DNA from: Alphaproteobacteria bacterium
Lineage (GTDB): Bacteria; Pseudomonadota; Alphaproteobacteria; CAAHEQ01; UBA3637
Direction of reading: 5' to 3'
Length of the DNA: 64,000 nt
NCBI GenBank assembly: GCA_017412085.1
Contig: JAFPYS010000019.1
Coordinates: 90,155 to 154,154, forward strand
The notes beneath the pieces were generated by a model. The model did not search any database. It saw only the letters and a program-made list of their open reading frames with translations, and was not told where the DNA came from. Below, piece after piece: positions 5,264 through 27,797 of this stretch. Position numbers and translations under genes: made by a program. Position 1 is the first letter of the stretch. The number at the start of each line of letters is the position of its first letter.

Positions 5264-7464
5264 GATATTTCTCCCAAATGGACATGATGGTCCCGCAGAT
5301 ATGAAGATAAGGCATTACGCAGGGAAGATTGCTTGCTGTTCAATTGGGACATGAGATAGTCACGGTATTTGTCTAAATTTAAGCTCCGAATGGCCGTTTT
5401 TACGGCTACAACAGATTCTGGACTCATAGATAACGTTCTGATACCCAATGCCAATAATGTTAATGCTTCTAATGGACGAGAAGCCATCTCACCACAAACA
5501 GAACATTTTACATGATAAGCATCGCATTGTTCTACAATCAGATTTAATGCTCTTAAAAAAGCAGGGCACAATGAATCGTAACGATTGTTAATTTGCGTAT
5601 TCGTCCTGTCCGCAGCGAACATAAATTGGGCCAGGTCGTTTGTCCCAATGGAAATAAAATCCACTAACGGCAACAAGTTATCCAGTTGGAAAATCAAGGC
5701 TGGCACTTCCAACATTGTGCCCACAATGATTTCTTTAGGCGTTTTTTGTTTGCGCAATATTGCATTTTTTAACTCAATTTCCAACGTCTTCTTGCTTTCA
5801 ATGAATTCTTCAACGGTTGTGATCATTGGGAACATAACCCTTAATGTACTGCCTGCTGTTGCTCGCAAAAGAGCCCGCAATTGATTTCTAAGGAGTGCGC
5901 GCCGGTCTAATGTCATGCGGATCGACCTCCACCCCATGGCTGGATTTTCTTCACCTTGTTGTTCAAAATATGGCAACACCTTATCAGAACCAATATCTAG
6001 TGTCCTGAAAATAACTGGTTTATTTTTGGCCTGAACTAAAACACGCTTGTACGCTTCGGTTTGTGTCCGAATGTCTGGTAAAGACTTTGCAGTCATGAAC
6101 AATAACTCTGTTCTATATAAACCGATACCATCGCAAGGGGGTAAATGATCCACTGCCCCAGACAGCCCCATGTTTAACATAAGCGATACATCCACTCCGT
6201 CTTTTGTTTGTGCGGGTTTGTCTTTATTTTTGGCCTGTAAACGAGCCATGCTTCTTAAGGCTTGTTGATAACTTTTTAACGTATCCAAAGTTTCATCCGA
6301 TGGGCGCAAATAAATCTTACCTTGCACAGCATCCATAGCAACTGGCGCCCCCTCTTCCAATTGGCGCACGGCTTCTTTGACCGCTCCAATCAAGGGAATT
6401 CTGTAAGCGCGAGCCACAATAACAACATGCGTTGTTTGCGAACCATCTTCCAAAACAATACCTTTAATGTGTTTTAAGTCATAATCCAATAACTCTGCTG
6501 CGCCCAAATTGTCGGCCACCAATATTTTATTGCCAATCAGCTTTTTTTTACCACTCTTAGGGATCAGGGCTTGCATTAATCTGGCAGTCAAATCTTGAAA
6601 ATCGCGTGCGCGTTCCCGTAAATATGGATCGGCGACAGCTCTCATCTTTTCCAATGTTTCATCGCCAACTTTCTGCAAAGCCGCCTGTGCGGTAAGTCCG
6701 GTCTTTATTGCAGATTCAACTTTGTTTTTCCATTCGACATCGCTTAAAAACATCAGATAGGTTTCAAACAATTCCTTTTCTTCTGCTGGCGTTGAAGGAT
6801 GAGTCAATCGACGTTGTATTAAACGTTTAACCTTCGAAAACGAAGTGTTTAGACGTTTGATTTCGCGATCCGGATGAATTGTAAGGATTGGGCCGTTAAT
6901 TTCCAACCGTCGGTGTAACAACACCTCGCCCAGCGCAAAACCTTGTATCATTCCTGTTCCCTCTAATGTCCTGGAGACAGAAAGAGACACCAAATTCTTT
7001 GTTGTTTTGCTGCTTGTTAATTCAGCCAAACACTCGGCCAATATCATGGCTACATTTTGAACCGCTTCTACGATTTCGGTGCTAAATGATTCCTTGCGCC
7101 GCGATAATAGGCCAAGCACCGCCAATACTTGATTTCCGCGTACCATAGGAACAACCAAAATGGTCTTGTTGACGCCTTTGGATGAAATAACGGCCTTGCG
7201 ATCCAAAGCGACCCGCCCAACGATTTCTTCCCCAAGTCGAACAAATGTTGGCAATTGGACGGGGCGACCAATTGCAAGGAAGTTTTCCAAAATATCGCCA
7301 GGACGCATAACGTATAAAACAGCCGATGGCATCTTAAGTTGTTCACACAATAACGTGAGAACAGTATTTAACCTTTTGGGGCCAGACATCTCTTTTGCCA
7401 TTACATCACGTAAGGCACTCATCATCGCCGTTACAGAAATAGTTGATCCCTTTGTCGGTGACAT
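5260..7464 (-). CDS. ptsP: phosphoenolpyruvate--protein phosphotransferase EI-Ntr (N-terminal GAF domain plus PEP-utilising enzyme domains)
   Basis: 734 aa. N-terminal GAF-like region, then PEP-utilising enzyme motifs (GGRTSHAAI-like segment LEDGSQTTHVVIVARAYRIP, plus the C-terminal TIM-barrel region). Confidence 0.85.
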   Translation of the reverse strand: MSPTKGSTISVTAMMSALRDVMAKEMSGPKRLNTVLTLLCEQLKMPSAVLYVMRPGDILENFLAIGRPVQLPTFVRLGEEIVGRVALDRKAVISSKGVNKTILVVPMVRGNQVLAVLGLLSRRKESFSTEIVEAVQNVAMILAECLAELTSSKTTKNLVSLSVSRTLEGTGMIQGFALGEVLLHRRLEINGPILTIHPDREIKRLNTSFSKVKRLIQRRLTHPSTPAEEKELFETYLMFLSDVEWKNKVESAIKTGLTAQAALQKVGDETLEKMRAVADPYLRERARDFQDLTARLMQALIPKSGKKKLIGNKILVADNLGAAELLDYDLKHIKGIVLEDGSQTTHVVIVARAYRIPLIGAVKEAVRQLEEGAPVAMDAVQGKIYLRPSDETLDTLKSYQQALRSMARLQAKNKDKPAQTKDGVDVSLMLNMGLSGAVDHLPPCDGIGLYRTELLFMTAKSLPDIRTQTEAYKRVLVQAKNKPVIFRTLDIGSDKVLPYFEQQGEENPAMGWRSIRMTLDRRALLRNQLRALLRATAGSTLRVMFPMITTVEEFIESKKTLEIELKNAILRKQKTPKEIIVGTMLEVPALIFQLDNLLPLVDFISIGTNDLAQFMFAADRTNTQINNRYDSLCPAFLRALNLIVEQCDAYHVKCSVCGEMASRPLEALTLLALGIRTLSMSPESVVAVKTAIRSLNLDKYRDYLMSQLNSKQSSLRNALSSYLRDHHVHLGEIS

Positions 7465-7542
7465 CCCCCTCTCCTTTTATTTTATTTTAGCAGAATCAAA
7501 TTTCAATCGTCAAGATTTTTTTGATAAAAACATAAAAAAGAC

Positions 7543-7570
7543 TTGCAAAAAGTTTTTTTTCGTGTATAAT
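7543..7570 (+). promoter_or_regulatory. sigma70-like promoter for tRNA-Glu (TTGCAA-16-TATAAT)
   Basis: TTGCAA at 7543-7548, a 16-nt spacer, TATAAT at 7565-7570, about 22 nt upstream of the tRNA. Confidence 0.55.
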
Positions 7571-7592
7571 ACCCTATGTTCTTATTCTAAAG

Positions 7593-7668
7593 GACCCCAT
7601 CGTCTAGAGGCCTAGGACATCGCCCTTTCACGGCGGTAACACCAGTTCAAATCTGGTTGGGGTCGCCA
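7593..7668 (+). tRNA. tRNA-Glu (anticodon TTC), CCA encoded
   Basis: GACCCCA acceptor pairing with TGGGGTC, anticodon loop CTTTCAC, T-loop TTCAAAT. Closely parallels E. coli tRNA-Glu. Confidence 0.9.
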
Positions 7669-7697
7669 TTTAAACGCCTTTGCTGGGCGTTTTTTTA
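7669..7697. terminator. bidirectional rho-independent terminator (tRNA-Glu on the plus strand, ABC transporter on the minus strand)
   Basis: Hairpin AACGCC-TTTGCT-GGCGTT flanked by an A-run upstream and a T-run downstream. Confidence 0.6.
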
Positions 7698-9473
7698 TTT
7701 CAATTGTGTTTTATAAAGGGATGCATACACGGAATCCGGATTGGCCAACAATTGGTCATGTGTTCCCATTTCCTTAATTTCCCCGTGATCGATCACAACA
7801 ATATTATCGGCATTTTTAACGGTGGACAAACGGTGGGCAATGATAAACACAGTCCGGTCTTTCATTAAGTTATAAATGGCCTGTTGCACAATCTCTTCTG
7901 ATTTATTATCCAAAGCGGATGTAGCCTCATCCAATATCACAATCGGTGCATTTTTCAAGAATGCCCGCGCAATGGCCACACGTTGCTTTTGTCCGCCGGA
8001 CAACTTTGTGCCGCGCTCCCCAATTTCAGAGTCTAAACCATTAGGTAGAGATTCAATAAATTCATCCAAACAGGCGTTATGGACTGCTTTTTTGACTTCT
8101 TCCGCTGTTGCATCTGCTTTGCCCAATAAAATGTTCTCTCTAATTGTACCAGCAAACAAAATATTATCTTGGAATACAATAGCAATATGATTGCGTAAAT
8201 CATCTAAATCAAGCTCTTTAACATTGATCCCGTCAATTTGGACAGATCCTTGCGTCACGTCATAAAAACGCGGTAAAAGTGTTACCAAAGTAGACTTACC
8301 ACCACCAGAATTCCCGACCAACGCAATTGTCTTGCCTTTATGAATTTCTAGATTAATGTCTTTCAAGACTGGGCGCCCCTTTTCATACTCAAACCATACA
8401 TGATCAAACACAATCTTATTGATTCCTTTAATATATCTTGGATGTTCACAGTTATGAATGGAAGGAATCGCCTCCAAACTGTCAAACACGCGGTCCATTG
8501 CCAAAAGCGACATCTGAAGCTTTGAATAGTTGCTTCCAATAGACTTGATTGGATGATAAAGCATCAACAAAGCTGTGATGAAGGACACAAATCCTCCAGG
8601 TGTTAACTTGTTGGATGTAATCAGATAGCTGCCCAACCAGATTACCCCTGCAATACCAATAGACACAATAAAGTGCATCATGGGCGTTAACATACCCGTC
8701 TTTTTGGTCATATTCATCCCTAATTTAAAGACTGAACGTAATGTTTCATTAAATTTATCACTGGCATATTTATAAAGATTGAAGGATGTAACAACTTTAT
8801 TACCCATAAACGCCTCGTTATAATGGGTCATAACGCGGGCTCCGGAAAATACTGTTTTATCCATGATGGACTTAATTTTACGCCGCAATCCAGCCAATGG
8901 TAAGAAAGCACCAAACATGACAATAATAGCAATAATGGACAATTGCCATGAGTTCCAAATTAAGACAAACACCAAAGAAATAGACGAAAATAAGCGAGTT
9001 GTAAATAGTTTTAGATTAGAAAGCAATCCACTACATGCAGTATCTGCATCATGGTTAAAACGTTGGATAACATTACCAGATGTGTTTTTATCAAAGAATT
9101 TTGCATCATTATGGATAAGTTTTTGGAACAAATCCTTCTTTAAATCCATTGTAATCTTTTGACCAACCCATGTATTTAAATATGTGGCAGCATAGTTTAA
9201 CAGACTTTGGGCAACGCTAAAGACAATGATAAGAGCTGGAATTAAAGAGGTTGCCTGCACACTCTTTTCAATCATCACCGTATCCATATAGGGTTTCAAT
9301 ACCCAAGCAATTGCTGCATCCATTGCACCCAACGGCAATGTTACTAATATCGCCAATATTGCCCGAAAGAGATATGGTTTAACATATGGATAAATCTTTC
9401 GATAATTGCGCACAAGATTTGTTTCTGTTAATTTTAATGGTAGTTTCATCCACGACCCTTCTCTTAAAGACAT
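7695..9473 (-). CDS. ABC transporter permease/ATPase fusion, MsbA-like lipid or glycolipid exporter
   Basis: 592 aa with six predicted TM helices, then Walker A GNSGGGKST, ABC signature LSGGQKQR and Walker B ILDEATSALD. Confidence 0.85.
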   Translation of the reverse strand: MSLREGSWMKLPLKLTETNLVRNYRKIYPYVKPYLFRAILAILVTLPLGAMDAAIAWVLKPYMDTVMIEKSVQATSLIPALIIVFSVAQSLLNYAATYLNTWVGQKITMDLKKDLFQKLIHNDAKFFDKNTSGNVIQRFNHDADTACSGLLSNLKLFTTRLFSSISLVFVLIWNSWQLSIIAIIVMFGAFLPLAGLRRKIKSIMDKTVFSGARVMTHYNEAFMGNKVVTSFNLYKYASDKFNETLRSVFKLGMNMTKKTGMLTPMMHFIVSIGIAGVIWLGSYLITSNKLTPGGFVSFITALLMLYHPIKSIGSNYSKLQMSLLAMDRVFDSLEAIPSIHNCEHPRYIKGINKIVFDHVWFEYEKGRPVLKDINLEIHKGKTIALVGNSGGGKSTLVTLLPRFYDVTQGSVQIDGINVKELDLDDLRNHIAIVFQDNILFAGTIRENILLGKADATAEEVKKAVHNACLDEFIESLPNGLDSEIGERGTKLSGGQKQRVAIARAFLKNAPIVILDEATSALDNKSEEIVQQAIYNLMKDRTVFIIAHRLSTVKNADNIVVIDHGEIKEMGTHDQLLANPDSVYASLYKTQLK

Positions 9474-9522
9474 GCTATTTTATCATGATTTCTATCCAAT
9501 TGCAAGTGCAAATGCAAAAAAT

Positions 9523-10677
9523 TTATGTCTTATGGCTATTATTCTTTTTTTTATGATGGATCCAAATGGGAATTCCAAAGAGATATATTTTTTTAATAGT
9601 TCGACGTATATTCCTTTTGATTTTAATGATGGGAATACCAAGGATATAGAGTTTCTTTTTGCGATTACTTTTTATAAATTCATAAAGACGCCAAACAAAA
9701 CGGGGACGTTTTTCCAAATGTTCTATTTTTTGCAATAACAGCATATTTTGTACATTAAGTTTAGCTAGTATTTGATATAAATTGTTTAACTTATCAGTTT
9801 TTTTCTGTAAGTCCCCAACAGATTGTTTAATTTTTTCGAACTCATTTTCTTGCCCTGTCAGACAATTTTGAACTTGCTTATCAAATTTTGTAAAAATAGT
9901 CTTCAGAACAATTCCCAAATCTTCTGGTAAAACATATTTTAACCATAGCTCTGTTAATGGATAAAATACATTATCTAATGGTTTGTGTCCGGCGTAATGA
10001 ATTAAATTTTTATTACGGCTCTCGCTTAATTCAGCATAGTCCTTCCACTCATAAACATTGAAATAGTTCCACCGATAATCAGCATAAATGACATTATCTT
10101 GGCAGACTGCATTAAATATATCCTGTTCAGCATATTTTGTGCTTGGATTTTTTAAACGATGTTCATTCAATTTTACCAATAACTTATCTTGGCGTATTTT
10201 TTTCAAGTTTAATAACATAATACCACAATTAAAATAAAGATTTGGGTTTGTTTTTTTGGTTTCAATATCTTCTTTTTCCACCACTAAATCCGGAACAATT
10301 GCCGCATAATGATTCCCTAGAGTAATATTGTAAAAATCAGCTATATCATCAGTTGCAATTATATCACCATCAAGATATAAAACTTTATCCTCTTTCAATA
10401 AATCAGCAATTATAAATTTAAAATAAACGGCAGAAGTTATATAGGGATGCTTAAAATTCATATCTTTGTAGATGTTTTTTTGTCGCAAGATTATAATTTC
10501 AACATTTTTACTTAAAAATTGTGAAAATTGAGCCACAGAAGTGTCAGATAAATCCACAGCAATAATATAAATCCTTAGTTTTTCTTTTTGGGTTTTGACA
10601 AGAGAATTTATAGCAGTCTTTGTTAACAAGACATAATTTTCATCACAAATAAAACAGATGTTCATTTTATGATCCAT
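9523..10677 (-). CDS. family 8 glycosyltransferase (LPS alpha-galactosyl/glucosyltransferase-like) with a C-terminal coiled-coil and duplicated LGIPI-KIK tail
   Basis: Its N-terminal half carries the GT8 hallmarks ICFICDENY and YLDGDIIATDD (DxD). The last 45 aa read LYILGIPIIKIKRN...IYLFGIPIWIHHKK. Confidence 0.75.
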   Translation of the reverse strand: MDHKMNICFICDENYVLLTKTAINSLVKTQKEKLRIYIIAVDLSDTSVAQFSQFLSKNVEIIILRQKNIYKDMNFKHPYITSAVYFKFIIADLLKEDKVLYLDGDIIATDDIADFYNITLGNHYAAIVPDLVVEKEDIETKKTNPNLYFNCGIMLLNLKKIRQDKLLVKLNEHRLKNPSTKYAEQDIFNAVCQDNVIYADYRWNYFNVYEWKDYAELSESRNKNLIHYAGHKPLDNVFYPLTELWLKYVLPEDLGIVLKTIFTKFDKQVQNCLTGQENEFEKIKQSVGDLQKKTDKLNNLYQILAKLNVQNMLLLQKIEHLEKRPRFVWRLYEFIKSNRKKKLYILGIPIIKIKRNIRRTIKKIYLFGIPIWIHHKKKNNSHKT

Positions 10678-10692
10678 TATCTTTACTCCAAA

Positions 10693-12855
10693 TTAACGAC
10701 AAATCTTTTTTAGTACAGGAATTCCTAAAAAATAGTACCGAATTTTGGTGTGTGATGAATTTGTTTTTATCTTTAAGATAGGAATTCCCAAAACTTTTAT
10801 TTTTGCTTTGTTTTGCTTTCTCTTATAACTGAACAATGGAATCAATCCAAACAGATAGCTTTTCATTTTATTCATCTCCTTCTTTGTTGTTAATAATGTT
10901 TGATGATTTAGATGGTGCTCCAATAATGATGTAAAATATTGTGCAATCCATTCTTGTTTTTCAAGTTTTGCTCCCAACTGAATTGCTTTGTTTAAAGGCA
11001 TTTTTAAGAATGAATAATGAACTAAATTCTGAGCATCCAACGCTGTTAACTGGTGGTATTGACCGTAATTTTGAAAGAGTGCTGTTATCACATCTGCTTT
11101 GACTGCAGCTGTATTCGACGATATCCCTCCCAGTCTATAACAAATAATAAATGGCTCAATCATTGTAATTCGTTTAGCGGCCTGTAACATCTTATACATA
11201 AAGGCTGTGTCAGAAGATACCTTATAATCTAAATCATAAAGTCCTAATTCTTTCATCACATCAGTTTTAATTAAAAATGTTTGATGACAAGCATGCTGAC
11301 CGAAGATCAATGAACGAGTTTGATAACAACTCCACAAACTTTTCACATCCATTGTTTTCTCATCAATAGATTTTGCACTTGCACAACACGCATCTGCATC
11401 TTGTTCTTCAGCCTTTTTCACCAACCATTCTAATCCCCGATCATCACAATAAAAATCATCTGAGTTCAAAACAACCACATATTTCCCCTTGGCCTTTAAA
11501 ATGCCTTTATTAATGGCGTCATACAGCCCCCTATCTGGTTCAGAATAATACGTAATCCACCCCTTTTCTTTATATTCTTTTAAGACATCTAATGTGCCAT
11601 CTTTTGAACCACCATCTATCACAATATGTTCAATATTCTTATACGTTTGATTATGAGCGCTAGTAATACTTTGAATAAAGGTTTTTTCGCGATTTTGTTT
11701 AATTAAATTAAATGTGGGTGTAATAATTGTAACGAGTGGTTTCTGATTTTTACGTTTTTCAACCTCTTCCATTTTATTTAAAATAACATCAACTGTTTTT
11801 TCCCAAGAAAACAGTTTGGAACGTTTCAGACCATTCTGGGCCATTTCATCACGATATTTTTTATCAAAATAATATTTTTCATAGGCTTTTACGTGTTGTT
11901 CGTCACTATCCCAATCGATCATTTGTCCCGCATCACCAACAACTTCCGGTAAACTAGTGTTATTAGATGTAATGACAGGACAACCACAGGCCATAGCCTC
12001 CAAGGGAGGCATACCAAATCCTTCATATTGCGAGGTATAAACAAACCATTCAGCATTGCTGTATAGGACTTCCAAATCTTCATCGTCCACATAACCAGCC
12101 CGAATAATTTTATCTTTATATTTCGAAAAATTTGGAATTTGTTCAGCCCATTTTTCAGCATCTTGCATTACATCTTTACCTGCGATAACATAGACCATAT
12201 TATCAATTTTATTTTGGTCAATAAACTCAAGAAATGTTTTAATACACCGCAGCAAATTTTTTCTGGGATCTAAAGAAGAACAAGAAAAAATAAATTTTTT
12301 ATTCAATGGAATATGATATTTATCTAATATCTTTTTTAATAAGTTTTTATCTTTATTCGGTTTATATGAAAAATTTGCTGCATTTGGAGCAACTATCATA
12401 TTTTTTTCATCGATCTGTGGCCAATACTTTAAAAAATCACGCTTTGTATAACGAGAAACAACAAAATAAAAATCATCCTCTCTGAACGAATTGACTAATT
12501 CACCAAACCAACTATTTGCTCTTCCAAAATAACGGGGCAATAAAAATGGGATGCAATCATGTAAAATAGTGTACCGAGAAATGTGAGGATACTGACGAAT
12601 AAAATCGGGTATTTTATAACTCGGTGATAAAAAAACATCTATTTTTGAAAAATCTCTCCCTTTATAAAAAATGTGATCTTCAGGAAAAGATTTGGTAAGC
12701 ATAGAAAGATCTTTTAGATGAGCTTGTTCTTCAAGATATAGATACAAATTAACGTTCCTTTTTCGAAATTCATTAAATATATTTTGTAAAACGAAAAAAA
12801 TTCCGGAACGACTTCCTAACTTTCCCAACAAACGGACATCCAAGCAAATATTCAT
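10693..12855 (-). CDS. bifunctional glycosyltransferase with N-terminal GT4 (group 1) and C-terminal GT2 domains
   Basis: GT4 motif [33 protein letters not shown], then GT2 motif VTIITPTFN...[11 protein letters not shown]. The C-terminal tail has three LGIPI-type repeats. Its ATG overlaps the stop of the upstream gene (ATGA). Confidence 0.8.
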
Positions 12856-15128
12856 TTTTTATTCCTTTTCCCTAAATTATTAATTAAATATTTTTCCAAT
12901 CGTTCACAAAAACTGGATTTATAATAGAAGAATAAATTTTGCTGTTCCTTCTCCTTAGCAGATAATTGAAAATGATTCTTTGCGTAATAATCTAGAGTTT
13001 TTATGAGGTGTTCTTTATTTTTAATAATATTGGGTAATAAATTCTCTTTGCCTAAATATGGATCAACGACATCCAAAACATGTCCATATTTTTGACAATC
13101 TTCTGCATCGTTAAGCGAATAAAAAAGAACAGGCTTTTCTTGGAAAAAGAATTCAAAACACATTGATGAATAATCCGTTATTAACAAAGATGCTATTTGT
13201 TTTATTTTGAAAATATCATCTTCACCAACTAAATCAATATTCATTTTCTGTAAAACGGGAGACAAAAGATCTGCAACAGAATGATGAAGGGCTATTTTAA
13301 TTTTGATATTATGAACATTCTTCTTAATACAATCCAAAATATCACATATATTCCTTACATATTGACTATCTTTAAGATTTTGAATTTGGGAAAGATAACG
13401 TCTTGTTGTAAAGAAAATAAGAATAAACTTTTCTGATTGCTCCAGTGCAGAATTATGAATACCATCCCAACGCATCAAACCATTTTTGATAATATCTTGA
13501 GTTTTAAAATTCCCTCGTTTAATAAATAATTGTTTTTCCATATCATTAGAAACCAAAACTTTATCAAAGATGTTTTTACCATAAACGTTGGGCATAATGA
13601 AATCCGGTTTAAAAAAAGTAACACCATGTTGCATAAAAATAGAGGTCATATGAGATGTATTTTTAACAATATTATGAAACCCAAAAGGAATAGCTGTAAT
13701 AGCTTGGAAACTATCAAAAACATATCTTAATCTAGGTACTAAAAACAAAAAACACAATTTTAAACGCCATGTTGGAGTAGTCCCAGAATTCCAAAAGATA
13801 ACATGTTTACCATATTTTCGAGCTAATTCTTGACGATATGGTGACTGCGAGTTCAATATGTAATAAGGAACTAATTTCCATTTTTTTTGATCATATAGAT
13901 ATTTAAAAAAAGTAAAATTATCTTGAATGTTGGCATTTGCTTCAAAAATGTTATCCATCAGCAATACAACATTGCGTTTAAACGGAATGCGATTAACGTT
14001 TTTCAAAATCTTTTCAAAAAAGTTAGATTTTTTTCTATTGGGATTATTTAATTTTATTTTTAACAATAAAAGACATCCTAATAAATATATTTTTATTTTA
14101 CCTGGCTTTTCCCTGATTTTAATAATTGGCAAAAAATTAAATAATTTATAGGTGGTTACATCGGAAATTTTTTCAAAATGGGATTGAATACTTTTTTGAT
14201 TAACAATTGCTTTTTCCTCTATCCAATCCAGTATTTTGGTTCTTTCTTTGGACCATTTGGCATAACCAGTTTGGATATATTTTATTGCATTTTCCTGAAT
14301 TTTTCTGATATTCCCCAATTGAATTGGTTGTGGATTTTGGGGATCATACAAATAGCCATTTACACCGTTTGTAATATATTCATTCATTGTTGGATTATTT
14401 GGAGCAATCACACATCTCCCCATAGCCATTGCTTCCAAAAAGCTCATTCCAATCCCTTCGTATAATCTGGGGGCAATATAAATTGCTGATTTCTGTTGTA
14501 TTTGCAACATTTCTTCTTTTGTATTAAACCATTCAGAATAAGTTATCTTCCATTTTGAATCTGGTGAGGGATCCATAAAAGTATGAGCTGGGTCTAAAGC
14601 CTTATGAATATGTAAGCGAGTGATTGAATTTCCCATCAAAAGCTTCTCAATAAGAAGTACGTTTATTGGGGTAATTCTTTGCCAGAAAAAAACAGATTTT
14701 GTATCCCCCATATTACCTATTTTTTGAGAGGGTTCTGGAAAATATTGGATATAGTGTGAAGAAAAACCGAGTTTACTCAATTCTTCATGCAATGTACGGC
14801 TGAAATTAATAATTTGAGTAAAACGATATTCGTACCAAATAGGATTATTCCGACTGGGAATACCATCATACATCGGGAAAAAAACACTTTTTTTAAAGGA
14901 AATAAGTTTTTTTAGTTTCTCTAAAGAAGGCATGATTTGCAACAAGACCAATATATCATATTGTTTTCCTTTCAATGGAGCAAAATGGGAATTTATCTCA
15001 TCCTTATATGGATCAAATGAAAACACATCTACAGTATATTTTTTTTCTAATACAGATAATAAAAATAAATTTGATTTGGTTTTATTGTGATAGGCGTGGC
15101 CAATATACAGTAGCTTTTTCTTTTTCAT
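12852..15128 (-). CDS. GT4 glycosyltransferase fused to a TagF-like CDP-glycerol glycerophosphotransferase domain
   Basis: GT4 motif YEGIGMSFLEAMAMGRCVIAPNNPTMNEYITNG in the N-terminal third. The C-terminal region carries the TagB/TagF hallmark ITDYSSMCFEFFFQEKPVLFY. An internal linker has LPIIKIREK...IYLLGCLLLLKIK motifs. Confidence 0.7.
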   Translation of the reverse strand: MKKKKLLYIGHAYHNKTKSNLFLLSVLEKKYTVDVFSFDPYKDEINSHFAPLKGKQYDILVLLQIMPSLEKLKKLISFKKSVFFPMYDGIPSRNNPIWYEYRFTQIINFSRTLHEELSKLGFSSHYIQYFPEPSQKIGNMGDTKSVFFWQRITPINVLLIEKLLMGNSITRLHIHKALDPAHTFMDPSPDSKWKITYSEWFNTKEEMLQIQQKSAIYIAPRLYEGIGMSFLEAMAMGRCVIAPNNPTMNEYITNGVNGYLYDPQNPQPIQLGNIRKIQENAIKYIQTGYAKWSKERTKILDWIEEKAIVNQKSIQSHFEKISDVTTYKLFNFLPIIKIREKPGKIKIYLLGCLLLLKIKLNNPNRKKSNFFEKILKNVNRIPFKRNVVLLMDNIFEANANIQDNFTFFKYLYDQKKWKLVPYYILNSQSPYRQELARKYGKHVIFWNSGTTPTWRLKLCFLFLVPRLRYVFDSFQAITAIPFGFHNIVKNTSHMTSIFMQHGVTFFKPDFIMPNVYGKNIFDKVLVSNDMEKQLFIKRGNFKTQDIIKNGLMRWDGIHNSALEQSEKFILIFFTTRRYLSQIQNLKDSQYVRNICDILDCIKKNVHNIKIKIALHHSVADLLSPVLQKMNIDLVGEDDIFKIKQIASLLITDYSSMCFEFFFQEKPVLFYSLNDAEDCQKYGHVLDVVDPYLGKENLLPNIIKNKEHLIKTLDYYAKNHFQLSAKEKEQQNLFFYYKSSFCERLEKYLINNLGKRNKK

Positions 15129-15138
15129 TTTTACTCTT

Positions 15139-16317
15139 TTACTTTAAATCGAAAATTTGTTGTGTGGTTTTATCCCAGGTGAATTGTTGCGCGCGCTGGA
15201 GACCTTTTAGCGATAATTCCTGGCGTTTTGAAGGATTACTATATAAATCCCCCATGACATGGGCCATCTTTTTTGCATCTGTTTCTGGCACATATAGTGC
15301 GACATCGCCCCCTACTTCCGGTAAGGAAGAATTGTGGCATGTGATAACAGGCGTACCGCATTGCATCGCCTCTAAGACAGGCAACCCAAAGCCTTCGTAT
15401 AAACTGGGATAAAGAAAAGCAGTTGCTTCAGAATAAAGTGCTGGCATGTCTGAATCAGCAACAAAACCCGTGCAGATAATCTTATTTGCGTATTCAGGAT
15501 AGTTTTGAATTTTTTCTTGTAATTTTTCATAATGACGACCTTTAGGGCCTGCAAAAACCAACGAAATATCCTTTGCTTCTATCTGATTTAAGAATTTTAC
15601 AAATGAATTTAAAATGTGTATAAAATTTTTTCTAGGATTGTGGTCTGAAACCGCCAAAAAATACTTTTGCGTCGGGATATGATATTTTTCTTTAATAGCA
15701 TTTGATTTTGAAGGTTTAAATTTAGAATCAGCTGCTAAATATACCACTTTCGTATTTTTATTGATATAATCGGGTCGAAATTTAAAAAAATCAATCTTTG
15801 TTGCATCAGAAACACAGATAACTTCATCAGCTTTCACTTGTTTAATCCAGGAACGATACTTCTTTACAAAACCAGGAGAACAGGTTTCTGGCATAATCAA
15901 GGGAATTAAATCATGAATAAACATTCTTGTTTTAATCTGGCTTTTATAAATAATTGGAGAAATGGGAGAAAATAAACTAAGGTATTCATCATATTGCCTT
16001 AATTGCTTCATATATTCATGAAAGTATTTTTGAGTCAAAAAATAACAATATGCTTTTTTATAAAGATTATATTTTTGTGTTGTCTTTTTTAGGTACGGCA
16101 TTCTGACAATATTAGGAACCAAATATCCAAGTCCTTTGTCTTCTAAATATTTTACTGGATCGACACCTTTTTTTGTCGTAACAATCGGGTAAACTTCATA
16201 CTCTTTTTGTTTGGAAATACGCTTCAAAACTTCCAAAGAAACACGACAAATCCCCGTCTCTCGCCCCGCACTCATTAATAACTGCTCAATATCATAAAGA
16301 AGCTTGATTTTTTTCAT
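15139..16317 (-). CDS. GT4 (group 1) glycosyltransferase
   Basis: Motif YPSLYEGFGLPVLEAMQCGTPVITCHNSSLPEVGGD. Start set at the ATG at 16317, which overlaps the stop of the cytidylyltransferase gene as ATGA. Confidence 0.8.
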   Translation of the reverse strand: MKKIKLLYDIEQLLMSAGRETGICRVSLEVLKRISKQKEYEVYPIVTTKKGVDPVKYLEDKGLGYLVPNIVRMPYLKKTTQKYNLYKKAYCYFLTQKYFHEYMKQLRQYDEYLSLFSPISPIIYKSQIKTRMFIHDLIPLIMPETCSPGFVKKYRSWIKQVKADEVICVSDATKIDFFKFRPDYINKNTKVVYLAADSKFKPSKSNAIKEKYHIPTQKYFLAVSDHNPRKNFIHILNSFVKFLNQIEAKDISLVFAGPKGRHYEKLQEKIQNYPEYANKIICTGFVADSDMPALYSEATAFLYPSLYEGFGLPVLEAMQCGTPVITCHNSSLPEVGGDVALYVPETDAKKMAHVMGDLYSNPSKRQELSLKGLQRAQQFTWDKTTQQIFDLK

Positions 16318-16748
16318 TGCTGATTCCATTTCTTTAAAATCCAACTAGATGAATTTGCCTTATGAGAACCGCCAATACCAAAGACTTTTTCAACATGACA
16401 TTCTTGACATACATCATCTTCGCGAATGTTCTCTTTTCCTCGATCTCCCCCATTCGCGAATACCAATACATCATGGGGATACATTTGTCGCACTTTACGA
16501 ATTCCATCACTGGCCGAGTTATCTGAATCATCAAAACCTAACGCACAAATAACTCCTTTTAAATTTTCGCAAATTGTTTTTCGTGTATTGAAGTTTTGAA
16601 AAGCTTTTCCCTTCTTACGGATTAACCATTCATCGGAATTAACCAAAACAACTACACCATCACTTGCCTCCGCCGAGGCCTTTATCATTTCAATATGCCC
16701 CTCATGAATGGGATCAAATCCTCCGCTGACAATATAATATTTTGCCAT
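16314..16748 (-). CDS. cytidylyltransferase-fold nucleotidyltransferase (TagD-like or HldE domain II-like)
   Basis: 144 aa with the (H/T)xGH motif SGGFDPIHEGH, and NSDEW...KGK and LVFANGGD segments that align to HldE domain II (FDILHAGH, NSD...KG, LVKGGDY). Confidence 0.7.
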   Translation of the reverse strand: MAKYYIVSGGFDPIHEGHIEMIKASAEASDGVVVLVNSDEWLIRKKGKAFQNFNTRKTICENLKGVICALGFDDSDNSASDGIRKVRQMYPHDVLVFANGGDRGKENIREDDVCQECHVEKVFGIGGSHKANSSSWILKKWNQQ

Positions 16749-16978
16749 TTGTTTTCCCTTTATAGATTCAAATCAAAACACATTATGTTGTGTTTTCTTG
16801 GAGAAGATTAAAACATACATTTTATACTAAGTCAAGAAAAAAATATAATATGAATATAATTTTATGTATTTTAATATGAAATTTCAAAATTATTAAAAAA
16901 TTTCAATGTATTAAAAATATTACCATTCAATTATTCAAAAGAGACTAGGTATAAAAAAGCATACAGTAGTATGTAAAA
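16749..16978 (-). promoter_or_regulatory. AT-rich (~85%) intergenic region, likely the promoter/leader of the glycosyltransferase operon
   Basis: 230 bp with no ORF and multiple TATAAT-like hexamers, immediately upstream of the first gene of a run of five overlapping or tightly spaced genes. Confidence 0.35.
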
Positions 16979-17230
16979 TTATTGACGTAATGCTTGGTCA
17001 ATTGCCTTAGATAATTGATCCGCGCAAGATGTGCCCTTCCCCGCGCAATCGTTGCCACGCAGAACATCTGCCACTTGTTTAGCATCTTTGCCTTCGATTA
17101 GTTTGCCAATCGCCAGTAAATTACCAGGACATCCACCTAAAAAACGAACATTATGTAACTTTCCATCTTCTATATCAAAATGGATTTCTTTAGAACAAAC
17201 CAATTGTGTACGATATACATAATGTGTCAT
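16979..17230 (-). CDS. TSCPD-domain small four-Cys protein
   Basis: 83 aa with GGCPGNL and GKGTSCADQL motifs that match the TSCPD signature. Lies 8 nt downstream of the helicase gene. Confidence 0.55.
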   Translation of the reverse strand: MTHYVYRTQLVCSKEIHFDIEDGKLHNVRFLGGCPGNLLAIGKLIEGKDAKQVADVLRGNDCAGKGTSCADQLSKAIDQALRQ

Positions 17231-17238
17231 ATTGCCTC

Positions 17239-19974
17239 CTATACAAATTTATCCAGCACACTTGACCAACGACTTACCTTGTCGGCATAGGTTGTTTGAA
17301 TGCTGGAATAAGCTTTTGCCCTTGATTTTAACATTAACACCCGACCTTCTACGTTGCGTGTGTAAATCACTTTACAATAACCAATATGTTTTTGCCAGTT
17401 ATTTTTAAAAATATTCGCCATTTCTTTGTTTTCAGATAAAATCTCTGGTAAAGCATGATAATCTTTTTGTTGCCACCATTTAACATTTGTATTTTGGCGC
17501 ACCAACAAGTACCTAGGATTATCAATCGGATCCAAGAATTGTTTCATGGCATTAATAAAGACATGATTATCTTTTTGATTTAGGCCGATCGCACTCACTG
17601 TATAATGAACACCTGGAATCTTTTTAACCTTTAGCAACGCTGCTTTTGGGGACGTGTTAATGGCATCTATCTCATATAAACTTTCTAACATCACAAGACC
17701 GATTTGTTCCAACATTTTTTCAGGACGTCCCGCCCTTAGAACTTTCCAAGTCGGAATCAACATAGCCACTATAAATACAGCGATAATTAATCCATATACC
17801 CACAAAGGCGCCATATTATCGTAAGCGATCTTACAGGCTTGATAAGCAAGGAATCCATAAGCGATAAGCATCGTGAAATAAGCATCCACAAAAGGTAATG
17901 TCTTTACTTTATTATTTGTGTCCAGTTCTTGTTTAACAGACCCGATGCCGACTTTTGATTCCTTTACAATTCCTTTTTCCCAAGCTGTTTTTGTTTCCTC
18001 GCGTGTATAAGCAAGTGCTTTTTCATTCAATTCGTCCAATTTCTTTTCTTTTAATTTAGTTGATTTTGTTCCCCATAGACAACGATCCATCCCATTCGTA
18101 ATATCATAAGGCGGCAATAAGCTTGGCGCTTCATAACCAGCAAAGCGACGACTTAAAGATTCAAAATCGCCACCGATATCGCCCTCTTCTCCCTTCCAAT
18201 TATCCACAATATTAAACACTTTGATGTTTGCCAGGTGCCAAATATGCGAAATCTTATCCGGATGATTTTTATCGACACGGATGGCGCGTCCCCGCATTTG
18301 GTTTGAAAGCATATAAGATGCCACGGCACTAGACAACACCAACGAGTTAATACTTGGAGCATCCCAACCTTCGCCCAACAAAGCCTGTGTCCCAACCATA
18401 ATCGTCAAATGACCACCATTAAACAAGTCTGTAATTAAATCCACAATCTTGGATTTTGCCTTTTCCTTTGGCTTAACCGTCACATAATCTGGATAATATT
18501 TAAAGGATGAAAAAGTTACATCGGACTTGTTCAAATTGGCTTTTTCCATTAAATCGACCAAAGGTTTTTCCGCATTTTTTGGAAGTAAGATAATTTGTCC
18601 GGTTAAAATACCAATACTGGCTTTTGGCAAATGAAGTGCCTCCAAGTGTCTGAAAATCGGTACCACACCCAAAGCATCTACCTTAGTCTCAAAGGCATCA
18701 TGCTTAATCAAATCGGCCAAAATTACCATCCGCAAGTCAGCTCCTAACAGGCTATGCTCACGTTTTACAATTTCCTCAATGGCGTCTAATTTCCCGAGAC
18801 TGCGAGCCAATGTTTGTGCAACCGAAGCATTATTTTGAATTTGCACAGATTTGTTTTCAATCAAGTTTGCCTTGGCCGCTTTTTGATGCAGAGAGTTAAT
18901 TTGATCGGCCAATTCGGGATACTTTTCCCCGTGTTTAAAAATTAAACCATTTAACACACGTTCGATCTCTGGTAATGTCAAGCGAGGCAACTCTTCGCCA
19001 GTTGCCTGAAAAATTTCCAAAAATGGCTTGGCAATTTCTTTCTTTTGAGTTTTTAAATAGCTTGACAAAGCAAGATAAAATTCTGGATCATCAAACAATT
19101 CCACCAAAAAAGGATCTGGATTATTCCAAAAAGAAAGCTGTTGAACAGCCGCGCCAAATTCTTCGTTTTTTAAAAAATCATCTACAAACGCTTTTGCCGC
19201 TTGTTCATGCTGAGCCAAAGCTTGTTTTTCTTCTTCGCGCAAATGAGCAAAGTAAATCAAGTCTTGATGTGGACATAAATCCCCAGCCTGCACCAACTCA
19301 GGGATGCTGATTTCGGCATCAACGGGACCACATAAAGCTTCATACCGATCCCATTCGTGCCGATCCACATCATAGGGAGGCGTTGCCGTTAAAGCCACAG
19401 TTTTTTTAAGGCTCATGTGCTCCATCAAATATTCCAAAGCCTTCCACCATTCTTTGCGCAGGTGATGGGCTTCATCCAAACACAGCACTTCGATCTTGGC
19501 TTTCTTTAAAATCTCGACCAACTTTAACGCTTTTTCTTCGTTTAAGCGTGACAATTTTTGAGCGCGCTTTTCCGCCTGCTCTTCCAAGGCGGACACTTCC
19601 TCGTCCGTTAAATCTTCTTTGACATCCTTTTCCACTTGACCGCTTAAGCCCGCCAACAATCCTTGATAGGTTGAAAGGGTGATTGTTTTGGGCGCCAAGA
19701 TATTTGTGGAAATCATGTCATCCGCAATCTTTTTGTTGGTCAAAAAGGCCTGTTTTAAACGGGATGCCCATTGATGTTTAATCGTGATTGTCGGCGTTAA
19801 AATCAAACAAGGTTTTGCAATACGGCGCAAAACCTCCAATCCCAAGATGGTTTTGCCGGCGCCAGGGGCCGCCACAATGTGTAATTTTTCGTCTTCAATG
19901 TGATTGTCCAAATCGTCCAAAATCGCCTGTTGATAGGATCGCCATTTGCCTTGAAATTGTAAATCTTTAAACAT
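17239..19974 (-). CDS. SF2 DEAD/DEAH-box helicase-family protein with a C-terminal membrane-associated extension
   Basis: 911 aa. Motif I AAPGAGKT, motif II LDEAHH, motif III TATP, motif VI QMRGRAIR. The C-terminal 300 aa contain two predicted TM helices (FTMLIAYGFLAYQACKIAY and LWVYGLIIAVFIVAMLIPTW). Confidence 0.8.
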   Translation of the reverse strand: MFKDLQFQGKWRSYQQAILDDLDNHIEDEKLHIVAAPGAGKTILGLEVLRRIAKPCLILTPTITIKHQWASRLKQAFLTNKKIADDMISTNILAPKTITLSTYQGLLAGLSGQVEKDVKEDLTDEEVSALEEQAEKRAQKLSRLNEEKALKLVEILKKAKIEVLCLDEAHHLRKEWWKALEYLMEHMSLKKTVALTATPPYDVDRHEWDRYEALCGPVDAEISIPELVQAGDLCPHQDLIYFAHLREEEKQALAQHEQAAKAFVDDFLKNEEFGAAVQQLSFWNNPDPFLVELFDDPEFYLALSSYLKTQKKEIAKPFLEIFQATGEELPRLTLPEIERVLNGLIFKHGEKYPELADQINSLHQKAAKANLIENKSVQIQNNASVAQTLARSLGKLDAIEEIVKREHSLLGADLRMVILADLIKHDAFETKVDALGVVPIFRHLEALHLPKASIGILTGQIILLPKNAEKPLVDLMEKANLNKSDVTFSSFKYYPDYVTVKPKEKAKSKIVDLITDLFNGGHLTIMVGTQALLGEGWDAPSINSLVLSSAVASYMLSNQMRGRAIRVDKNHPDKISHIWHLANIKVFNIVDNWKGEEGDIGGDFESLSRRFAGYEAPSLLPPYDITNGMDRCLWGTKSTKLKEKKLDELNEKALAYTREETKTAWEKGIVKESKVGIGSVKQELDTNNKVKTLPFVDAYFTMLIAYGFLAYQACKIAYDNMAPLWVYGLIIAVFIVAMLIPTWKVLRAGRPEKMLEQIGLVMLESLYEIDAINTSPKAALLKVKKIPGVHYTVSAIGLNQKDNHVFINAMKQFLDPIDNPRYLLVRQNTNVKWWQQKDYHALPEILSENKEMANIFKNNWQKHIGYCKVIYTRNVEGRVLMLKSRAKAYSSIQTTYADKVSRWSSVLDKFV

Positions 19975-19991
19975 CTCTCCCCCTGATATAT

Positions 19992-20984
19992 TTATCGTTC
20001 TTTTGGTGCGTATTTAGCCAAAGTCACCGCCACAGGACTTTCAAATGGTTTGGCCAGTTGTTTTTGTTGTTCCAACTTTTCCATTTCTTTTTTGTGCTTT
20101 TGTAATCTCTCAAAGGTCATCAAACCAGACAGGGCGGCACAAAACCCCAAAAAACCACGCTCCATTATAGGCAGATTTGGTGCAAATAGGGCAGTTGGTA
20201 TAGCCATAGCAGCACCAGATGCCCGTACAGCTAGACCGGCCACATACGATTTTCTGTCGGCGTCTTTCAACTTTTCATGTTCAGCATTAAACCATTGTGC
20301 CACACCAGCCGCGGTTTCTTGAATGCCATGTTTTTTCACGCTATCCATCAAGGTCAATGGATCCGCCATGGCCAGACCAACCAGTGCTGGCATTTTATCA
20401 AAACGCTCTGACGGCAATTGTTCATATAGCTCTGCAAATACCCTGCGATATTTCATGTATTGCTCGTCTGTTAAAAACGACACCTTTTCTTCCCGATTTT
20501 TCTTAATCATTTTGGCAAAGAAATTGTATTCTTTTTTGCTGTCTAAACCATTATTCAAAGAATCAAAGAAATCATCAAATTTTAATGCATACTTCCATCT
20601 ATGCAAAGAATAAAGTGTTTCACAAAAATCGGCATATTTATCTAAATTAACATGACCTTCTGTATCAACTTCACCATCTCTTGCATCAAACATTTTCAAG
20701 ATTTTTTCAGGGCAAACATATTTTACTCCACGACGTAATATTGCTATTCCCAATTCCGGAACAGGAACACCACACACTTTTCCAAAACCATGATCTGGCC
20801 GAACCAACAAAAATCGTTCGCGCAATTCTTTTCTGGCCGCCTTAGCACCCTCGGTCAAATCCCACGCAGAAAATTCGTGTTCCTCCACCTTTAGAAAGGC
20901 ATTAATTTCTTCCTCCCGCAGCTTGATCTGATGGCGGATCCAATCTTTTTCATCATTGAAATTTGTGTGTTTGTGCGATTCCAT
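19992..20984 (-). CDS. hypothetical protein (paralog of the next gene) with a C-terminal bilobed hydrophobic segment
   Basis: 330 aa. About 45% identical over the C-terminal 200 aa to the 313-aa neighbour (FDKMPxALGLAMAD, SVKKxG, GVAxWFxAE). Hydrophobic hairpin AGLAVRASGAAMAIPTALFAPNLPIMERGFLGFCAALSGLM. Confidence 0.65.
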   Translation of the reverse strand: MESHKHTNFNDEKDWIRHQIKLREEEINAFLKVEEHEFSAWDLTEGAKAARKELRERFLLVRPDHGFGKVCGVPVPELGIAILRRGVKYVCPEKILKMFDARDGEVDTEGHVNLDKYADFCETLYSLHRWKYALKFDDFFDSLNNGLDSKKEYNFFAKMIKKNREEKVSFLTDEQYMKYRRVFAELYEQLPSERFDKMPALVGLAMADPLTLMDSVKKHGIQETAAGVAQWFNAEHEKLKDADRKSYVAGLAVRASGAAMAIPTALFAPNLPIMERGFLGFCAALSGLMTFERLQKHKKEMEKLEQQKQLAKPFESPVAVTLAKYAPKER

Positions 20985-20996
20985 TTCAGCACCTTC

Positions 20997-27720: not shown

Positions 27721-27797
27721 TGGCGGGATTGAAGGGGCTCGAACCCTCGACCTTCTGCGTGACAGGCAGACGCTCTAACCAGCTGAGCTACAACCCC
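27721..27797 (-). tRNA. tRNA-Asp (anticodon GTC), CCA encoded
   Basis: The reverse complement reads GGGGTTGTAGCTCAGCTGGTTAGAGCGTCTGCCTGTCACGCAGAAGGTCGAGGGTTCGAGCCCCTTCAATCCCGCCA, with anticodon loop CTGTCAC. Confidence 0.9.

Follow-up and report, generated by a model that had tools for sequence, protein, structure and literature searches.

The window analysed here, a stretch of 64,000 nucleotides from an Alphaproteobacteria bacterium (contig JAFPYS010000019.1, positions 90,155 to 154,154), carries a compact group of six genes that an earlier note, made from the letters alone, had taken for a glycopolymer locus with teichoic-acid-like features in a Gram-negative background. All six open reading frames (ORFs) were recovered where it had placed them, on the minus strand and co-oriented from 16748 to 7695, and Pfam bore out every one of its domain calls. 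In the order of reading they are:

16314-16748, minus strand: CT_144, 144 aa, a PF01467 nucleotidyltransferase with an HxGH motif (HEGH)
15139-16344 as a 401-aa ORF, or 15139-16317 as 392 aa, minus strand: GT4, a glycosyltransferase with PF00534 (100.6 bits)
12852-15128, minus strand: a 758-aa protein with PF00534 (aa 201-269) and PF04464 (aa 517-737)
10693-12855, minus strand: a 720-aa protein with PF00534 and PF00535
9523-10677, minus strand: GT8, a 384-aa glycosyltransferase with PF01501 (131.8 bits)
7695-9473, minus strand: ABC_592, 592 aa, with PF00664 and PF00005

Both of the ATGA couplings noticed previously are present, CAGCAATGAAAA at the CT_144/GT4 junction and AAAAAATGAATATT at the junction of the 758-aa and 720-aa genes, and the remaining intergenic gaps in the operon measure 10, 15 and 49 bp. 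Because of the overlap CAGCAATGAAAA, translation of GT4 likely starts at the ATG at 16317 (392 aa) and not at the TTG at 16344. The count of four glycosyltransferase genes stood and could be refined to five glycosyltransferase modules (three of type GT4, one GT2 and one GT8) plus a TagF-type module. The Ex7E motif is intact in all three GT4 modules, as is the DxD motif in GT8, and no transferase has a hydrophobic stretch of membrane-spanning length.

The 758-aa protein, which joins a glycosyltransferase to a TagF-type domain, is divided as follows:

14169-15128, minus strand: N-terminal compact GT-B (GT4-like) module, aa 1-320, with PF00534/PF13692 at aa 201-269
14031-14165, minus strand: inter-domain linker, aa 322-366, in which a basic/hydrophobic beta-hairpin motif occurs twice
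12855-13991, minus strand: C-terminal TagF-type (PF04464) phosphotransferase domain, aa 380-758

The PF04464 match reached 58.9 bits against a gathering cutoff of 22.1. An AlphaFold2 (AF2) model built from an 81-sequence alignment, with a mean predicted local distance difference test score (pLDDT) of 91.9, consisted of two GT-B units and a low-confidence linker (pLDDT 47-66; strands E325-359), and it gave two Rossmann halves to the N-terminal module, whose Ex7E motif reads EGIGMSFLE at aa 224. In Foldseek searches against the PDB the top matches were Cps3D (8QOY), TarL (8VA1) and TagF (3L7x), at E 1e-11 to 1e-8, and Bcs3 (8A0C/8A0M), with generic GT4 enzymes and UDP-GlcNAc 2-epimerases behind these TagF-type matches, and by sequence the profile of the C-terminal subfamily found TagF (1e-19), TarL (2.5e-18) and Cps3D (3e-13). 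The C-terminal domain thus has TagF, TarL and Cps3D as its matches in both fold and profile, in agreement with the TagF-type assignment of the earlier note, and the ITDYSS motif on which that note had drawn is present.

The catalytic residues are also conserved. In an L-INS-i alignment H501 paired with TagF H444, H615 with H584, R553 with R511, T574 and R576 with T546 and R548, and ITDYSS with ITDYSS; this pairing was used instead of the HMMER alignment, in which TagF H444 was offset at a 16-residue TagF insertion. The aligned catalytic and conserved positions are invariant in 16-24 members of the TagF subfamily, and H444 and H584 are essential for catalysis in TagF and in TagF-like capsule polymerases (PMC5974469, PMC11666461). 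By sequence and by model, the C-terminal domain therefore belongs to the PF04464 family on all features that can be tested in silico.

CT_144, with HEGH at aa 15-18, had been described as a TagD-like or HldE-II-like cytidylyltransferase. A profile of 23 family members scored 39.8 bits for TagD (1COZ), 36.5 for TarD (2B7L) and 30.1 for ethanolamine-phosphate cytidylyltransferase (ECT), and only 21.0 for Burkholderia HldC (5X9Q), so that by profile the TagD/TarD half of the description is the nearer one. The other half, an assignment to ADP-heptose synthesis, was not borne out, and gmhA, hldA, gmhB and GT9 genes were absent from the window and from every CT_144 context examined. The family has the motifs SGGFDPIHEGH, NSDxWLxRKKGK, FANGGDR and KANSSSWIL of its own. 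Over 2000 homologs are known to the search, and identity among the 120 best is 69-87%; among organisms of the same kind CT_144 is more conserved than PtsP. Within the operon of the window it is the sole nucleotide-activating gene.

Homologs of CT_144 stand beside TagF-type genes in three independent contexts, namely the window and the loci L002 (70% identity) and L039 (65%), where L- and P-numbers are labels for related loci and related proteins, respectively. On L039, a human-gut contig of higher GC, the CT_144 homolog comes directly after a GT2-TagF fusion (8762-11610), and a divergent pair at 6701-8445 encodes a HAD-IB enzyme beside a glycerol-1-phosphate-dehydrogenase-like protein (NF002022, 217 bits). 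By analogy, this pair suggests a dedicated supply of a glycerol-phosphate isomer, the trio of dehydrogenase, HAD enzyme and cytidylyltransferase being reminiscent of pneumococcal gtp1-3 by gene type (PMC1391919). Because the genomic context, that is the adjacent TagF-type genes and the L039 dehydrogenase, tips the balance, we favour CDP-glycerol as the product, and judging from sequence and neighbourhood it is quite likely that CT_144 makes it.

The three other transferase genes fit around this pair of enzymes. The stand-alone GT4 has its Ex7E motif at aa 317 (numbering of the 401-aa ORF), and homologs of 44-54% identity adjoin CT_144 in L002 and L027-29. The 720-aa enzyme comprises a GT4 part (aa 1-365, Ex7E at aa 278), a GT2 part (aa 366-~600), whose solved relatives include the chondroitin synthase K4CP, and three tail motifs (aa ~665-720); its orthologs, at 50-65% identity, lie 3′ of the TagF-type gene in L002 and L030. 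GT8 shows DxD at aa 103, a long helical stretch and, at its C-terminus, two tail motifs, with LgtC, GlyE-type GT8 enzymes and the GT8 domain of WbbM as best solved relatives. No counterpart of GT8 was found in L002 or L030, and the gene is specific to the locus of the window.

The tail motif is a basic/hydrophobic element of ~18 aa, K-x-Y/K-h-L/F-G-I/L-P-h-h-K-I-K, which occurs in 2-3 copies per protein, in the GT8 tail (9523-9650), the tail of the 720-aa enzyme (10696-10863) and the linker of the 758-aa protein (14031-14165). It has no Pfam match and is predicted, at low confidence, to form beta-hairpins. Up to ~6 copies follow the same GT4 module in the unrelated homologs P0005-7, P0011 and P0012, and the motif precedes the TagF domain in P0123. 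It may serve to tether the proteins to the membrane or to let them oligomerise.

An N-terminal GT4 module, a TagF domain and a GT4-GT2 enzyme form a set that is conserved in the window, L002 and L030, the first two being separate genes in L030. Multi-domain fusions of glycosyltransferases with TagF had been called uncommon; this exact fusion is rare, and fusions of the subfamily with glycosyltransferases recur. Among 1.84 billion representatives at 50% identity, the only alignment to cover N-terminal GT4 module, linker and TagF domain without a break was that of P0004, a truncated fragment of 524 aa, and a word-indexed search for the fusion returned only P0001, P0002 and P0003. Other partners of the TagF subfamily recur, namely GT2 (P0353, L039), a different GT4 (P0355) and RgpF with GT92/GT2 (P0454), and the subfamily also exists as a 388-aa stand-alone protein. 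The N-terminal GT4 module, ~50% identical across Lachnospiraceae, Moranbacteria and others, is fused elsewhere to GT2, LicD, methyltransferase or Stealth domains. A metagenome scan for the TagF subfamily gave 14 loci, mostly on short contigs and with L039 among them, a number too small for co-occurrence statistics. The exact fusion is rare, and the design principle is common.

The MsbA-like ABC exporter reported to follow the glycosyltransferase genes was confirmed in its domains and in its position, on the same strand after a 49-bp gap. ABC_592 is a half-transporter of type IV (ABCB-type) in which a transmembrane domain with ~6 hydrophobic segments precedes a nucleotide-binding domain (TMD-NBD). 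It scored 528 bits with the MsbA model TIGR02203 (cutoff 602) and 434 with PRK11176 (cutoff 867), below both cutoffs, and 213 bits with the PglK model (cutoff 1000); among solved half-transporters it is equally close to Sav1866 (363 bits) and to MsbA (339-358). Separate ABC2_membrane and ABC_tran genes of the TagGH/Wzm-Wzt kind were not found in the window. In L031/L032, at 10001-13293, the gene for a 594-aa TagF-subfamily protein of Firmicute type overlaps a permease/ATPase pair of the ABC-2 class (TagGH/Wzm-Wzt-like), which shows that the subfamily works elsewhere with a different class of exporter.

Three features border the operon:

16749-16978, minus strand: AT-rich intergenic stretch of 230 bp, the presumed promoter region of the operon
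7672-7692: G+C-rich hairpin between A and T runs, with an 8-bp stem containing 4 GC pairs
7593-7668, plus strand: tRNA-Glu(UUC), called by ARAGORN and by Rfam (56.6 bits)

The hairpin lies directly 3′ of the ABC_592 stop codon and faces the convergent tRNA-Glu; it is a probable bidirectional terminator for the operon and the tRNA. No terminator-like site was called within the 49-bp gap between GT8 and ABC_592. The shared strand, the short gap and a strong hairpin only after ABC_592 form the pattern expected for co-transcription, and the simplest reading is a single transcription unit from ~16.9 kb to 7.67 kb. Promoter-like hexamers could be listed upstream of the operon, but they were not enriched in comparison with shuffled sequences, and Rfam reported no regulatory RNA there, the tRNA being its sole match.

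As regards the host, identical scaffolds were found in ENA metagenome assemblies. The PtsP encoded in the flank is 58-73% identical to PtsP of metagenome-assembled genomes (MAGs) of uncultured gut and rumen Alphaproteobacteria, a relatedness from which we take the host to be diderm; the window also encodes an autotransporter, and the Gram-negative background proposed before is upheld. The block tRNA-Glu(UUC)-ptsP-glk-birA-RNase J is conserved in the relatives L005-L010, and collinearity ends at tRNA-Glu: the ABC gene, the glycosyltransferases and the helicase genes described below were not found at the equivalent site in any of them. In the relative L006 tRNA-Asp(GUC) lies ~260 bp from tRNA-Glu; in the window it lies at 27721-27797, and ~20 kb of non-syntenic, lineage-specific DNA separates the two tRNAs. 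The interval between tRNA-Glu and tRNA-Asp is a hot spot of genome variability.

The G+C content at third codon positions (GC3) of the five biosynthetic genes is 0.24-0.29, against 0.33-0.46 for most flanking genes, and related clusters elsewhere are also lower in GC than their own flanks. Low GC3 together with broken synteny is the signature typical of a variable surface-glycan locus. Integrase or transposase genes are absent from the island block, and when its far side was searched for att-like copies of the 3′ end of tRNA-Glu in direct orientation, only short repeats at chance level came up. The remainder of the window is housekeeping (Suf, aspartyl-tRNA synthetase, Mfd, MreBCD-PBP2-RodA) plus the autotransporter, and kps, tagGH/wzm-wzt, waaL, wzx and wzy genes were not found anywhere in its 64 kb.

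Glycerol-phosphate glycans occur in a number of enterobacterial O-antigens. Glycans of this kind built from CDP-glycerol are found in Gram-positive capsules and wall teichoic acids (WTA; PMC1391919) and in Gram-negative capsules (PMC5974469). Dyads of a GT4 and a TagF-like domain that use UDP-Gal and CDP-glycerol are a precedent for the 758-aa protein (PMC5974469, PMC11666461); in Cps3D/Cps7D of Actinobacillus pleuropneumoniae the two domains alternate on one chain with these donors (PMC11666461). Like the 758-aa protein, Cps3D/Cps7D (PDB 8QOY) combine on one polypeptide a TagF-like domain with the same pair of histidines and a retaining GT4 with Ex7E, and their clusters likewise contain a small glycerol-phosphate cytidylyltransferase (GCT; Cps3B/7B) in a Gram-negative host (PMC5974469, PMC11666461). 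The window differs from them in domain order, with GT4 before TagF, in a beta-hairpin linker where Cps3D/Cps7D have a tetratricopeptide repeat (TPR) domain, in a sequence identity of only ~11-15%, in the absence of kps regions 1 and 3, and in the addition of the GT4+GT2 enzyme, GT8 and an adjacent ABC transporter of the MsbA type and not of the KpsMT type.

The analogy with group 2 capsules drawn in the earlier note consequently held for the domain architecture, since the TagF-like domain is fused to a glycosyltransferase domain as in the group 2 polymerases of Litschko et al. (2018), and not for the rest. A TPR domain, present in the majority of TagF-like group 2 capsule polymerases, was found in the 758-aa protein neither by Pfam nor in the AF2 secondary structure; transition transferases are missing from the operon, where neither a PF04991 gene nor a further PF04464 gene occurs; and the 64 kb hold no kps genes. 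Because the kps context, the TPR domain and the transition transferases are all missing, we did not file the locus among the group 2 TagF-like capsule polymerases.

With the WTA enzymes TagF, TarL and TagB (PDB 3L7I, 8VA1) the 758-aa protein shares PF04464 and the same positions for H, R, TWR and TDYSS, and TagD/TarD (PDB 1COZ, 2B7L) are the best solved relatives of CT_144. Unlike the WTA systems, the locus has a diderm host, a TagF domain fused to a glycosyltransferase, and no TagGH, TagO/TagA or LCP genes, and CT_144 differs from TagD/TarD in lacking the RTxGISTT and RYVD motifs and in scoring far below the TagD equivalog cutoff. MsbA, PglK and Wzk flip fully assembled lipid-linked glycans (lipid A-core by MsbA of E. 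coli; PglK acts in C. jejuni and Wzk in H. pylori). As in those systems, the window has a single-polypeptide TMD-NBD exporter beside soluble or peripheral glycosyltransferases and no Wzx/Wzy, although ABC_592 falls below the MsbA cutoffs and far below that of PglK, and differs in composition from the glycosyltransferase genes. Pneumococcal capsule loci (gct or gtp1-3 with wchX; PMC1391919) resemble the window in having a cluster-encoded CDP-glycerol pathway and a glycerol phosphotransferase within a polysaccharide locus; unlike it, they are Wzx/Wzy-dependent and Gram-positive, and glycerol phosphate is there a side group.

Starting from the observed gene order and coupling, the domain identities, the TagF fold with its catalytic residues and the island character of the locus, we infer the donor substrates, the nature of the product (polymer or oligosaccharide), its lipid acceptor (undecaprenyl-linked or lipid A-core) and its export route as follows. 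CT_144 would convert glycerol phosphate and CTP to CDP-glycerol. In the 758-aa enzyme two active sites would alternate, by analogy with Cps3D/Cps7D, the GT4 module transferring an alpha-linked hexose from an NDP-sugar and the TagF-type module glycerol phosphate from CDP-glycerol, with H501 as base and H615 acting on the pyrophosphate; the predicted product is a glycosyl-glycerol-phosphate linkage pair. The translationally coupled 720-aa GT4+GT2 enzyme would contribute two further sugars, either as branches or inside the repeat itself, the GT4 partner of CT_144 would probably take an early step as primer or adaptor, and GT8 would add an alpha-Gal/Glc branch or cap. All enzymes are expected to be cytoplasmic or peripheral, the beta-hairpin repeats probably holding the transferases at the inner membrane, and an ABC exporter, in the simplest case the MsbA-like ABC_592 of the same transcription unit, would flip the lipid-linked product. 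We give somewhat better than an even chance to the view that these six genes form one operon for the cytoplasmic-face assembly of a glycerol-phosphate heteroglycan, O-chain-like or lipooligosaccharide-like and of teichoic-acid-like chemistry. The original proposal of a polyol-phosphate glycopolymer, capsule-like or decorating lipopolysaccharide (LPS) or a glycolipid, stands with it: the fold of the C-terminal domain is that of TagF, and CT_144 was not assigned to heptose synthesis.

Several findings weigh against this pathway. CT_144 reached only 45.4 bits with the TagD model TIGR01518 (cutoff 165.4), in a near-tie with the RfaE-II/HldE domain II model TIGR02199 (42.7 bits, cutoff 181.5). RTxGISTT and RYVD are signature motifs of the CCT/GCT family, and both were absent from all 23 aligned members of the CT_144 family, which carry KANSSSWIL and KGV(I/V) instead. 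The fold search placed TarD first and HldC fourth, with TarD, 3GLV, HldC and TagD within one order of magnitude, and this comparison is uninformative as to TarD or HldC. Three types of cluster contain a CT_144 homolog and lack a TagF-type gene; conversely, no cytidylyltransferase is encoded within 10 kb of the nearest stand-alone TagF gene (L030, 48% identity). Some TagF-like domains transfer hexose phosphate, for instance those of Cps1B-type polymerases (PMC5974469). On the side of export, the GC3 of ABC_592 is 0.376, host-like and unlike that of the glycosyltransferase genes, no related cluster contains a counterpart of it, and the protein could still be a housekeeping MsbA despite its score below the cutoff. 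An initiating transferase, a ligase and a chain-length gene were not found in the window.

These points can be arranged into other explanations. One of them separates the two key proteins: the TagF-type domain would be a hexose-1-phosphate transferase or would draw on a CDP-polyol from another source, and CT_144 would make some other CDP-alcohol or NDP-sugar for its GT4 neighbour or for other enzymes. We regard such a functional separation as unlikely. It would explain why homologs of CT_144 with 69-87% identity sit in many glycan clusters devoid of PF04464, usually beside a GT4 or HAD-IIB gene and with no hidden TagF-like gene found in those clusters, why a 393-aa weak GT-B family travels with CT_144 in L021-23 and L039, and why the TagF-type gene of L030 adjoins GDP-sugar short-chain dehydrogenase/reductase (SDR) genes; hexose-phosphate transfer by Cps1B-type domains and the nearly tied NCBIfam scores are in line with it. 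The three independent adjacencies of CT_144 and TagF-type genes speak for a functional link, as do the dehydrogenase-like neighbour in L039, the profile ranking TagD > ECT >> HldC and the fact that the operon has no other nucleotide-activating gene. That the locus is instead region 2 of a group 2 (Kps-type) capsule, with the 758-aa protein as TagF-like polymerase acting on a poly-Kdo glycolipid and KpsMT-KpsDE encoded elsewhere, appears very unlikely. Cps3D is the top structural match, and the fusion of a GT-B module to a TagF-like domain with a cytidylyltransferase in the cluster mirrors Cps3D/Cps7D and Cps3B/7B of App3/App7; against this, neither the 64 kb nor the flanks of L002 and L030 contain kpsM/T/C/S/D/E, ABC-2 or Capsule_synth genes, GT4 and TagF stand in the opposite order, a separate TagB-like or LicD-like transition transferase is missing, and so is the TPR domain, which Cps3D/7D require to elongate the natural primer (PMC11666461).

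For ordinary LPS core genes we see only a very slight chance; on that view CT_144 would adenylylate heptose-1-phosphate as HldC does, lipid A-core would be extended by the glycosyltransferases and flipped by MsbA, and no polyol phosphate would be involved. The TagF fold with its intact catalytic pair argues against it, together with the absence of GT9 heptosyltransferase, gmhA, hldA and gmhB genes already mentioned, the 21 bits for HldC against 40 for TagD in the family profile, and a low-GC3 island that is missing from relatives, unlike conserved core genes; in its favour are the adjacent MsbA-like gene, the lipooligosaccharide enzyme LgtC as best solved relative of GT8, RfaE-II and TagD scores of similar height, HldC as a good structural match to CT_144, and a conservation of CT_144 at housekeeping level. 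Export is the weakest link of the model that we prefer, and the putative role of ABC_592 as exporter of the glycan and its being merely adjacent are about equally likely. In the version where the biosynthetic part is right, ABC_592 is a housekeeping lipid A flippase adjacent by chance and the glycan leaves through an unlinked Wzm/Wzt-type or other transporter, a combination whose probability we put somewhat short of even. The host-like GC3 (0.376 vs 0.24-0.29 in the island), MsbA as best family match, related clusters without any MsbA-like gene and the ABC-2 pair beside the Firmicute TagF relative are consistent with it; the shared strand and 49-bp gap, the terminator-like hairpin after ABC_592 and none before it, the relatives that keep no msbA-like gene at this site, and scores below the MsbA equivalog cutoffs argue for a link to the operon.

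In the reading we prefer, the locus combines in a new way enzyme parts familiar from Gram-negative capsules and Gram-positive walls: a GT4-TagF fusion with reversed domain order and no TPR domain lies, in a gut alphaproteobacterium, on an island outside any kps context. To our knowledge, teichoic-acid-like glycerol-phosphate polymers of Gram-negative bacteria have so far been characterised mainly in the group 2 capsules of pathogens. Here the same catalytic logic, a GT4/TagF-like dyad with a cytidylyltransferase, would operate in an uncultured gut commensal alphaproteobacterium without kps machinery, and across metagenomes the TagF subfamily behaves as a mix-and-match module with GT2, GT4 or RgpF/GT92 partners. 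Such knowledge would help to predict surface chemistry and immunogenicity in little-studied gut bacteria and would provide compact polymerase parts for the enzymatic synthesis of glycopolymers. The locus opens no new mechanistic category.

The more intriguing loose end is the highly conserved CT_144 family with its partners other than TagF. Its commonest neighbours in the TagF-less clusters are a GT4, a HAD-IIB enzyme and the 393-aa weak GT-B family, and the GT4 is orthologous to that of the window (44-54% identity), often with a 4-nt overlap. The 393-aa family, which has a weak Glyco_trans_1_4 match, is encoded at 6799-7980 in L021, at the equivalent positions in L022/L023 and at 13544-14728 in L039; the L021 and L039 proteins are 36% identical (E 8e-78), and the family thus occurs near CT_144 in two unrelated lineages. 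We see in it another family that may use what CT_144 makes. A HAD-IIB (PMM/Cof-type) gene, for a putative phosphatase or mutase, directly follows CT_144 in L002 (700-1419), L021 (8435-9166) and L022 (6980-7723), and none does so in the window. Cryptic TagF-like genes were sought among the unannotated neighbours in the TagF-less clusters with the TagF subfamily profile, and the idea was rejected (hhalign probability ≤1%, nothing in Pfam). In a broader and distinctly doubtful scheme, CT_144 would be a clade-wide conserved nucleotidyltransferase of gut Alphaproteobacteria whose product, a CDP-glycerol isomer or another CDP-/NDP-precursor, is used by several unrelated transferase families besides TagF-type enzymes, its translationally coupled GT4 and the 393-aa GT-B family being candidates; CT_144 and GT4 would form a priming module before hypervariable glycan genes, and in the window a teichoic-acid-like polymer would be flipped by an MsbA-type exporter. 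We know of no Wzk-like export route described for polyol-phosphate polymers.

Further upstream, at 17239-21938, a 911-aa helicase of the ResIII/DEAD type is followed by two paralogous proteins without Pfam domains (330 and 313 aa, 36% mutual identity). PADLOC gave only weak, PbeA-like matches for the helicase, and all three genes are missing at this site in the relatives; they may be a defence or mobile module. Between them and the operon, immediately upstream of the latter at 16979-17230, lies a small TSCPD-domain gene (TIGR03905 4-Cys family) with a GC3 of 0.26, as low as in the island genes, which in the relative L008 is located on the other side of ptsP.

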